Below, in pieces: positions 56,759-59,262 of a DNA stretch of 64,000 bases; position 1 is the first letter of the stretch; every line of letters starts with the position of its first letter. The position numbers and the translations under genes are program-made. The notes beneath the pieces are model-generated. The model was given only the letters and a program-made list of their open reading frames with translations, did no database searches and was not told the origin of the DNA. Source of the DNA: Escherichia coli (GTDB taxonomy: Bacteria; Pseudomonadota; Gammaproteobacteria; Enterobacterales; Enterobacteriaceae); assembly GCF_024223415.1 (NCBI RefSeq), contig NZ_CP100500.1; one strand, 5' to 3'.

Positions 56759-57472
56759 ATGCAAAAGCAAGCTGAGTTGTATCGTGGTAAAGCGAAAACC
56801 GTATACAGCACGGAAAACCCGGACCTGTTGGTGCTCGAATTCCGCAATGATACGTCAGCAGGGGATGGCGCGCGCATTGAGCAGTTTGATCGCAAAGGTA
56901 TGGTGAACAACAAGTTCAACTACTTCATTATGAGCAAACTGGCTGAAGCGGGTATCCCGACTCAAATGGAGCGTCTGCTCTCCGATACCGAATGTCTGGT
57001 GAAAAAGCTGGATATGGTACCGGTTGAGTGTGTCGTGCGTAACCGTGCTGCTGGCTCTCTGGTGAAACGTCTTGGAATCGAAGAAGGTATTGAGCTGAAC
57101 CCGCCGCTGTTCGATCTGTTCCTGAAAAACGACGCCATGCACGATCCGATGGTCAACGAATCTTACTGCGAAACCTTTGGCTGGGTAAGCAAAGAGAACC
57201 TGGCACGCATGAAAGAGCTGACCTACAAAGCGAACGACGTGCTGAAAAAACTGTTCGATGATGCTGGTCTGATTCTGGTCGACTTCAAGCTGGAGTTTGG
57301 TCTGTACAAAGGCGAAGTGGTACTGGGTGATGAGTTCTCCCCGGACGGTAGCCGCCTGTGGGACAAAGAAACGCTGGAGAAAATGGACAAAGACCGTTTC
57401 CGCCAGAGCCTCGGTGGCCTGATCGAGGCCTATGAAGCCGTCGCCCGCCGCCTGGGTGTACAGCTGGACTGA
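56759..57472 (+). CDS. purC: SAICAR synthetase
   Basis: 237-aa product from [16 protein letters not shown]. Confidence 0.95.
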
Positions 57473-57494
57473 TTTTTCTGGTTGCTTGTTTATT

Positions 57495-57516
57495 TAGCCG
57501 GAGGGTACTCCGGCTA
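57495..57516 (+). terminator. Hairpin downstream of purC (weak terminator candidate)
   Basis: Perfect 9-bp stem tagccggag / ctccggcta with a 4-nt loop; no clear U-tract follows. Confidence 0.35.
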
Positions 57517-57587
57517 AATGTCTTCGATACCCCCGCTACAATACTTCGCATTATCTCCCTTTGACAGGAAAGTAATAACAGGCCAAT

Positions 57588-57599
57588 ATGTATATACAT
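57588..57599 (+). promoter_or_regulatory. Perfect 12-bp palindrome ATGTATATACAT in the vapBC promoter region (putative VapB operator)
   Basis: Palindrome lies between a TTGACA hexamer (57561-57566) and the vapB Shine-Dalgarno/ATG. Confidence 0.4.
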
Positions 57600-57626
57600 G
57601 ACGTATATCCCAAAAAAGGGGGGGCT

Positions 57627-57854
57627 ATGGAAACTACTGTATTTTTAAGTAATCGCAGTCAGGCCGTCAGATTACCGAAAGCGGTCGCTCTGCCAGAGGA
57701 TGTTAAGAAAGTAGAAATTATTGCGATTGGTCGTACAAGAATCATCACTCCCGCCGGTGAGTCCTGGGACAGTTGGTTTGATGGCGAAAATGTGAGTGCG
57801 GATTTTATGGATATCCGTGATCAACCCGCAATGCAGGAAAGGGAATCATTCTGA
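57627..57854 (+). CDS. vapB: VapB antitoxin (AbrB/SpoVT-type DNA-binding fold)
   Basis: 75-aa product from METTVFLSNRSQAVRLPKAV with a strong GGGGG Shine-Dalgarno; stop overlaps the vapC start (TGATG). Confidence 0.8.
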   Translation: METTVFLSNRSQAVRLPKAVALPEDVKKVEIIAIGRTRIITPAGESWDSWFDGENVSADFMDIRDQPAMQERESF

Positions 57855-58252
57855 TGCTGAAATTCATGCTGGATACCAATATCTGTATTTTCACTATTAA
57901 GAATAAACCAGTACATGTCAGAGAGCGGTTTAACCTGAATTCTGGCCGGATGTGTATAAGTTCTGTAACATTGATGGAGCTTATCTATGGGGCAGAAAAA
58001 AGTCAGATGCCAGAACGCAATTTGGCGGTGATTGAAGGTTTCGTATCTCGTTTGGAAGTGCTTGATTATGATAGTGCTGCTGCGACGCATACTGGGCAAA
58101 TCAGGGCCGAGCTTGCCCGGCAGGGAAGGCCTGTTGGACCTTTTGACCAGATGATAGCGGGACATGCTCGCAGTCGCGGTTTGATTGTGGTTACCAACAA
58201 TACCCGAGAGTTTGAGCGAGTGGCGGGAATCAGACTAGAAGATTGGAGCTAA
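57854..58252 (+). CDS. vapC: VapC PIN-domain ribonuclease toxin
   Basis: 132-aa ORF starting MLKFMLDTNICIF with conserved acidic PIN residues; closely resembles the enteric VapC/MvpT family as I recall it. Confidence 0.85.
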   Translation: MLKFMLDTNICIFTIKNKPVHVRERFNLNSGRMCISSVTLMELIYGAEKSQMPERNLAVIEGFVSRLEVLDYDSAAATHTGQIRAELARQGRPVGPFDQMIAGHARSRGLIVVTNNTREFERVAGIRLEDWS

Positions 58253-58398
58253 CATTCTCTTTTACTTCTAACATTCGTAAATTATATAACGTGGCATGAA
58301 GCCTTAATTCCTCCGCCATTTCATCCCGTTTTCCTGTGGTAATCTTCCTCTGAACCACCTACGATCATTTCTATAATGAATATATTGTTGAGGTATCT

Positions 58399-59262
58399 AT
58401 GCGTTGGCAAGGGCGACGTGAAAGTGACAATGTTGAAGACAGGCGCAATAGCTCCGGCGGTCCGTCAATGGGCGGTCCCGGTTTCCGTCTGCCGAGCGGT
58501 AAAGGCGGGCTGATTTTACTGATAGTCGTGCTGGTTGCAGGCTACTATGGCGTTGATTTAACCGGGTTGATGACCGGGCAGCCGGTTTCTCAACAGCAAT
58601 CAACGCGGTCAATTAGCCCAAATGAAGACGAAGCCGCAAAATTCACCTCGGTGATTCTGGCAACCACGGAAGACACCTGGGGACAACAGTTCGAGAAGAT
58701 GGGTAAGACCTATCAGCAACCGAAGCTGGTCATGTACCGTGGAATGACGCGTACCGGATGCGGGGCGGGCCAGTCCATAATGGGGCCGTTCTATTGCCCG
58801 GCGGATGGCACGGTTTATATCGATCTCTCCTTCTATGATGACATGAAAGACAAACTTGGCGCGGATGGCGATTTTGCCCAAGGGTACGTTATCGCCCATG
58901 AAGTCGGTCATCATGTGCAGAAACTGTTAGGCATCGAGCCGAAAGTTCGTCAACTGCAACAAAACGCGACGCAGGCGGAAGTGAACCGCTTATCTGTGCG
59001 TATGGAACTCCAGGCCGACTGTTTTGCCGGTGTCTGGGGGCATAGTATGCAGCAGCAAGGCGTTCTGGAAACCGGCGATCTGGAAGAGGCGCTGAACGCT
59101 GCGCAGGCCATCGGCGATGACCGTTTACAACAGCAAAGTCAGGGGCGAGTAGTACCAGACAGTTTCACTCATGGCACTTCTCAGCAACGCTACAGCTGGT
59201 TTAAACGTGGTTTCGACAGCGGCGATCCGGCACAATGCAATACTTTTGGTAAAAGCATTTAA
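58399..59262 (+). CDS. ypfJ: Predicted zinc metalloprotease-family membrane protein YpfJ
   Basis: 287-aa ORF with HEVGHH motif and an N-terminal hydrophobic segment. Confidence 0.9.

Follow-up and report, generated by a model that had tools for sequence, protein, structure and literature searches.

A candidate OS1-type operator and a length-variable ribosome-binding site in the leader of a chromosomal vapBC operon of Escherichia coli

The leader that precedes vapB in some Escherichia coli chromosomes combines, within a few dozen bases, a perfect 12-bp palindrome and an uninterrupted run of six A and seven G residues. It raises the question whether these two features are working parts of the operon, the one as a site for self-repression by its own gene products and the other as a slippage-prone tract that varies expression between isolates, or whether either of them is incidental. 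We addressed this in a stretch of 64,000 nucleotides from the E. coli contig NZ_CP100500.1 (the window), in which the genes concerned and the segment that carries them are as follows.

57481..58306, plus strand: vapBC cassette of 826 bp, flanked by purC and ypfJ, delimited by comparison with BL21
57627..57854, plus strand: vapB, antitoxin of 75 aa with an AbrB/SpoVT-type N-terminal domain; identical loci carry this gene in their RefSeq annotation
57854..58252, plus strand: vapC, PIN-domain toxin of 132 aa, whose ATG shares one base with the vapB stop; likewise annotated by RefSeq in those loci

With a PIN toxin and an AbrB-type antitoxin encoded first, the gene pair is classified by sequence as an enteric VapBC (MvpAT) type II toxin-antitoxin system. 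The order is vapB before vapC, with the TGA stop of the former overlapping the ATG start of the latter at 57854. VapB is 85% identical to Shigella sonnei VapB (PDB 6SD6, chain A) over all 75 residues; residues 1-24 are identical and residues 1-45 hold four conservative differences, while the Pfam family MazE_antitoxin scores 23.8 bits on it, slightly below the cut-off of 24.7. VapC has a Pfam PIN match (E 1.8e-21), and its best PDB matches are the tRNA(fMet)-specific endonucleases VapC of Shigella and Salmonella (6SD6 and 3TND, E 1e-79); its translation holds all four acidic active-site residues (D7, E42, D98 and E119). Given about 90% similarity to the characterised proteins, VapC would be expected to cleave initiator tRNA and VapB to neutralise VapC.

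The cassette is carried by 1615 of 5426 complete E. coli genomes (about 30%), and at the same site E. coli BL21 has 67 unrelated bases, including a GC-rich hairpin. Two divergent Escherichia lineages (L013 and L014) also carry this cassette at the purC-ypfJ site, with ypfJ at 92.6% and the cassette at 96-97% identity. At the left end of the cassette, directly after purC, lies a perfect hairpin with an 11-bp stem (57493-57518; TTTAGCCGGAG-GGTA-CTCCGGCTAAA) that has no T-run downstream. On IncF-type, F-like conjugative plasmids (L005, L006) traI and traD flank a vapBC homologue that is encoded on the strand opposite to theirs. One PLSDB record of 4.8 Mb (NZ_OL790696.1, H101) contains the chromosomal E. 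coli vapBC at 99.8% identity and looks like a chromosome labelled as a plasmid. Literature searches on vapBC at purC/ypfJ, and on vapB with a homopolymer or Shine-Dalgarno sequence, returned nothing specific.

The promoter elements of the leader could be placed by reference to plasmid and distant chromosomal homologues.

57561..57566, plus strand: vapBC promoter -35 hexamer, TTGACA; plasmid homologues and distant chromosomal ones have this hexamer, or one with a single change, at the corresponding position
57584..57589, plus strand: probable -10 hexamer CAATAT after a 17-nt spacer, placed from homologue positions

The first-pass annotation had noted the TTGACA upstream of the palindrome, and both its coordinates and its letters are exact. 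The last two bases of CAATAT are the first two of the palindrome, and at this position homologues have CACAAT, CATAAT or TATTAT. A scan for consensus promoters listed none at the vapBC leader, because CAATAT matches only three of the six consensus positions.

Immediately downstream, the palindrome falls within a region that can be compared directly with biochemically defined VapBC operators. The VapBC complex of S. sonnei binds the site called "OS1", both as a 33-bp duplex (primer SH176) in EMSA and as a fragment in SPR; the study reports that OS1 and a second site, OS2, lie over the -10 and the -35, and the VapBC octamer, with two DNA-binding domains, requires two half-sites (mBio 2024; PMC11796401). 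For Salmonella enterica LT2, the corresponding DNase-footprinted operators are vapO1, over the -10 and of higher affinity, and vapO2, over the -35, and a single operator alone suffices for regulation (PMC3378870). The reverse complement of SH176 matches the Shigella flexneri pINV locus exactly (L004, 355-387), and carrying the alignment without gaps from TTGACA into the window gives the following features.

57588..57599, unstranded: 12-bp perfect palindrome ATGTATATACAT, identical to its own reverse complement
57590..57598: left (promoter-proximal) OS1 half-site GTATATAC(A), inside the palindrome; rank 6 of 127,984 by the half-site matrix
57603..57611, plus strand: right OS1 half-site GTATATCCC; rank 1 of 127,984, identical to the family consensus
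57582..57614, unstranded: counterpart of the 33-bp OS1 probe to which S. sonnei VapBC binds, in ungapped register from TTGACA

In this register the left half-site aligns to ATAGATATAC and the right one to ACATATCCA of the pINV OS1 probe. A matrix derived from 174 half-sites at non-Escherichia loci and scored on 127,984 positions of the window ranks GTATATCCC at 57603-11 first and GTATATACA at 57590-98 sixth; the core positions of this matrix are partly circular, because its sites were chosen with a pattern. The two half-sites repeat with a period of 13 bp and form the sole pair so spaced in the window. The first-pass annotation had described a 12-bp perfect palindrome at 57588-57599 between TTGACA and the vapB start, which is exact in position and in self-complementarity, and had proposed it as the autoregulatory operator. 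This proposal stands in so far as the palindrome lies inside the OS1-aligned stretch, but the palindrome is the left half-site only, and GTATATCCC had been overlooked.

The arrangement recurs well beyond Escherichia. We examined 80 loci with VapC relatives from other species and genera, among them Pseudomonas, Vreelandella, Sphingobium, Rhizobium and Dadabacteria. In 36 of the 80, two boxes of the pattern ATATNY-N7-ATAYHC lie directly 5' of the ribosome-binding site, at a constant distance from the start codon, and in 50 of the 80 the same pattern lies across the -35, compared with 0.04 loci per 80 in shuffled upstream regions. The homologues yield an OS1 consensus of TG-G-(G/T)-ATATAC-N5-G(T/C)ATATCCC, and the boxes at 57590 and 57603 agree with the half-site consensus G-N-ATAT-(C/A)-C as a pair 13 bp apart over the -10. 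Plasmid-borne vapBC copies (Shigella pINV, E. coli IncF, and Serratia and Citrobacter plasmids), which are about 75% identical in the coding region, have in common with the window the TTGACA, the distance of 21 nt to ATG(G/T)ATATAC and a nearby ATATCC box. Taken together, this supports the palindrome as the left half-site of a candidate VapBC self-repression operator of the OS1/vapO1 kind, a design that is already known.

The second operator of the plasmid systems can be traced in the window as a remnant.

57551..57572, plus strand: OS2/vapO2 remnant around the -35, with a degenerate first box (TTATCTCCC) and no second box

The two OS2-equivalent positions have matrix scores of 0.2 and -24.0, and TTGACA is followed by GGAAAG where relatives have TATCCC, which argues that the second operator has been lost from the chromosomal copy. 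The OS2-like arrangement GTATATCCC-(A/T)TTGACATATCCC is seen at 50 of the 80 homologous loci, and OS2 is degenerate or absent in all the Escherichia chromosomal copies and alleles examined. A homologue in Winslowiella arboricola (L020) looks similar to the Escherichia copies in the state of its OS2.

We therefore consider it probable that this leader provides a chromosomal vapBC operon of the enteric type with its promoter, operator and ribosome-binding site, and suggest the following mechanism. Transcription would initiate at TTGACA-N17-CAATAT, from a start site expected near 57596-57598. One operator of the OS1/vapO1 type would cover the -10 and the expected start, with GTATATAC and GTATATCCC as half-sites at the 13-bp period. 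By analogy with the Salmonella and Shigella complexes, the AbrB-type domain of one VapB dimer would occupy each half-site, and a VapC dimer would bridge both VapB dimers into a VapB4C4 octamer that blocks RNA polymerase; an excess of VapC, or degradation of VapB by Lon, would lift the block. In this lineage the second operator, which lies over the -35 in plasmid and many chromosomal relatives, would have decayed, so that repression would rest on a single site.

Translation of vapB would then depend on the purine run between the operator and the start codon, which consists of the following parts.

57612..57617, plus strand: A6 run in the 5' untranslated leader, 5 to 8 long among E. coli
57618..57624, plus strand: G7 run, 6 to 9 long among E. 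coli
57616..57622, plus strand: Shine-Dalgarno sequence AAGGGGG (the last two A and the first five G), with predicted pairing to the 16S 3' end

The G7 is followed by CT and then by the vapB ATG at 57627, and no other run of G or C in the 64 kb reaches seven. Reading the whole A6G7 (57612-57624) as the Shine-Dalgarno, as had been done, agrees with the predicted pairing, which places AAGGGGG at the A/G border opposite the anti-Shine-Dalgarno. The duplex of AAGGGGG with the 16S rRNA 3' end is predicted at -11.2 kcal/mol in every length variant, compared with -12.2 for the canonical pINV site, and spacing to the AUG equals the length of the G-run minus 3. A small CCC/GGG hairpin is predicted with the A-run as its loop, and the probability that the ribosome-binding site is unpaired is 0.21-0.32 across all variants. 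A length-dependent hairpin switch that hides the ribosome-binding site was considered and rejected, predicted folding being nearly equal among the variants. No Rfam family matched 57400-58450 at an E-value of 1 or below.

Relatives have AAGGAGG or GGAGG at the position of the run. In the two divergent Escherichia lineages and the window it reads AAAGAAGGAGGGG (L014), AAAGAAGGGGGGG (L013) and AAAAAAGGGGGGG (window), each of 13 nt. These three forms are joined by two point substitutions, and the homopolymers are thus read as derived from an ordinary purine-rich site. On this reading, the A6G7 would have arisen by the two substitutions from a site like AAAGAAGGAGGGG in a divergent Escherichia lineage and then become a hotspot of one-base indels, with the length of the A-run (5 to 8) setting leader length and that of the G-run (6 to 9) setting an AUG spacing of 3 to 6 nt. 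In an unrelated homologue, that of Desulfobacter latus (L091), AAAAAACAGGGGGGGG precedes the start of the vapB homologue, and there too an A-run passes into a G-run at the ribosome-binding site, apparently through an independent origin.

The suggestion that such a run could vary between isolates had come with a proposed comparison of its length among strains, which we carried out by exact-match searches with queries of 84-88 nt on 1616 E. coli carrier records.

A5G7: 1034 records
A6G7 (the form of the window): 370 records
A8G7: 66 records
A7G7: 60 records
A5G8: 34 records
A5G6: 23 records
other variants (A8G9 among those seen): 29 records

The exact-match counts cover six of the seven run-length variants encountered. 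As lengths of A5-A8 and G6-G9 occur among isolates, the invariant length that would have spoken against the idea is not what is found; G7 nonetheless accounts for 94.7% of records. A5 goes with one vapBC haplotype and A6-A8 with the other: the split is tied to four leader SNPs, none of them in a box or hexamer, and to the VapC alleles WP_000911330 and WP_000911329. The local haplotypes were resolved by aligning 8 kb around the run from 18 strains (loci L093-L109 around the tract), which yielded 252 SNPs and, apart from the A/G run, a single internal indel site, 6 bp long. This second site lies in the bcp-gcvR region of the O111:H8 strain 8B (alignment columns 600-605). G8 is found on four or more local haplotypes, twice only 2-3 SNPs from a G7 neighbour, and G6 on three, while the sampled A7 pair and A8 pair are each clonal. 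With just one other internal indel site in the alignment, and with G8 and G6 on several haplotypes, the run counts as a local hotspot of insertions and deletions.

What these changes do is a separate matter. According to the predicted duplex, the common A-run changes leave the ribosome-binding site and the AUG spacing unaffected and alter leader length alone, and their effect on expression is predicted to be small. Modelled changes of the G-run shift the AUG spacing from 3 to 6 nt and could alter translation. Since folding is nearly equal across the variants, a functional effect of length is without computational support, and we regard the run as a slippage-prone ribosome-binding site whose polymorphism is mostly neutral, not as a contingency switch.

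Of the other explanations, the one that survives best is that the A/G run is a true contingency, or tuning, switch, in which slippage changes the spacing between ribosome-binding site and AUG and thereby the output of VapB and VapC, so that lineages differ in their thresholds of toxin activation. The polymorphism of both the A-run and the G-run, the recurrence of the G-run changes on separate haplotypes close to G7 neighbours, the direct setting of a 3 to 6 nt spacing by G-run length and the status of the G7 as the sole long G/C run in the window all favour it. Against this, the run lies in the untranslated leader, outside the reading frame and the -35/-10 interval, which leaves no on/off logic; the great majority of records keep G7; transcriptional autorepression would damp any translational change; all variants have near-equal energies of folding and duplex formation; and part of the variants may be sequencing errors. 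A G7 is moreover a short tract for high-frequency switching in a species proficient in mismatch repair. We judge such a switch unlikely. A stronger form, in which the run is a selected tuning knob and recurrent slippage of the G-run resets VapB/VapC production in a promoter that lacks the second operator, strikes us as very unlikely; if true, E. coli lineages would differ heritably and reversibly in VapC release, with effects on persistence or stress arrest.

It is equally hard to credit that the palindrome is no more than a fortuitous AT-rich symmetry where the promoter melts and that VapB recognises only the downstream GTATATCCC or another sequence. Perfect palindromes of 12 bp are indeed at chance frequency in the 64-kb window (17, compared with 20.0 +/- 4.8 expected from first-order Markov simulations), and any significance must therefore rest on position and conservation. 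Nor is the perfect symmetry kept: plasmid copies have ATGGATATACAC or ATAGATATACAC, and it is specific to this lineage, most relatives having GG for the GT of the window and hence four or five of the six symmetric pairs. The core G(G/T)ATATAC, in contrast, stands at the exact position in the same 36 of 80 distant homologues and within the bound pINV OS1 probe, and the left box core is invariant in 14 of 14 E. coli and Escherichia copies while neighbouring spacers vary. Single-base differences among E. coli alleles likewise fall in spacers and spare the boxes and hexamers, and an octamer with two DNA-binding domains calls for two half-sites (PMC11796401). The left half-site has T in the window where 74% of the homologues with an OS1-like site have G, and its affinity may therefore differ. 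The weight of position and conservation leads us to retain the palindrome as part of a paired operator.

Least probable of all is that the run-length variants are mostly sequencing or assembly artefacts, as the G6/G8 lists, rich in strain series that are probably long-read-only assemblies from few centres, might suggest, but which sits poorly with the tie between A-run length, leader SNPs and VapC alleles, with the presence of A7 and A8 in at least 60 records each from many laboratories, and with the G8 common to five O103 strains (four typed O103:H2) across four accession series. Homopolymer indels are the typical error of long-read-only data, and many entries of the G6/G8 lists belong to the CDC 2013C-2015C and USDA RM series, which we take to be assemblies of that kind; some of the rare G6/G8 variants may accordingly be assembly or homopolymer errors.

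Several further readings of the leader were discarded. An ATG within the palindrome as an alternative vapB start (MYIHDVYPKKGGA-METT...) would be in frame only with a run of 13 nt in total, and so not in A5G7, the majority allele, and it precedes the position where transcription is expected to begin. The minus strand has a mirrored open reading frame (57599-57285), which spans the cassette junction and runs antisense to purC, and AAAAAAG as a dnaX-like -1 frameshift heptamer lies outside any translated frame. A LexA (SOS) box has the consensus CTGT-N8-ACAG; the palindrome is TGT-N4-ACA, with the wrong spacing and with the flanking C and G missing.

The first-pass observation is thus correct but largely ordinary, and leaves the understanding of VapBC unchanged. 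Its value is that the known autorepression design with paired half-sites can be assigned, by sequence comparison, to the chromosomal vapBC of about 30% of complete E. coli genomes, and that this chromosomal copy appears to have one operator in place of two. The natural series of ribosome-binding-site alleles (A5-A8, G6-G9) could serve for tests of how translation rate and single-operator feedback affect toxin-antitoxin levels.

Three known systems can be set beside the locus. The closest is vapBC (mvpAT) of the pINV plasmids of S. sonnei and S. flexneri, which has the same gene pair, with the VapB compared above and, in VapC, the near-identical best PDB match, and which also has TTGACA, 21 nt to the first box and two OS1 half-sites in register. 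The half-sites read GTATATAC/GTATATCCC in the window and AGATATAC/ACATATCCA in pINV; OS2 is present in pINV and lost in the window; the ribosome-binding site is A6G7 in the window and AAGGAGG followed by 6 nt in pINV; and the window copy is chromosomal, between purC and ypfJ, whereas that of pINV is on a plasmid. The vapBC of S. enterica LT2 is regulated by conditional cooperativity, with an AbrB-type VapB that is degraded by Lon (Winther and Gerdes, 2012; PMC3378870). Its vapO1 and vapO2 lie over the -10 and -35, whereas the window has an equivalent of vapO1 only, and this likeness is drawn from position and a shared family motif, the 80 loci of our conservation set including no Salmonella locus.

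The third comparison is with phase variation at homopolymeric tracts, as in the contingency loci of Neisseria, Haemophilus and Campylobacter, with which the window shares a G-run that varies among isolates through recurrent changes. Unlike those loci, the short run in the window occupies a stretch of 5' leader between operator and start codon, where neither a frame switch nor a promoter-spacing switch is possible, and it has a single dominant length, with G7 in about 95% of records.
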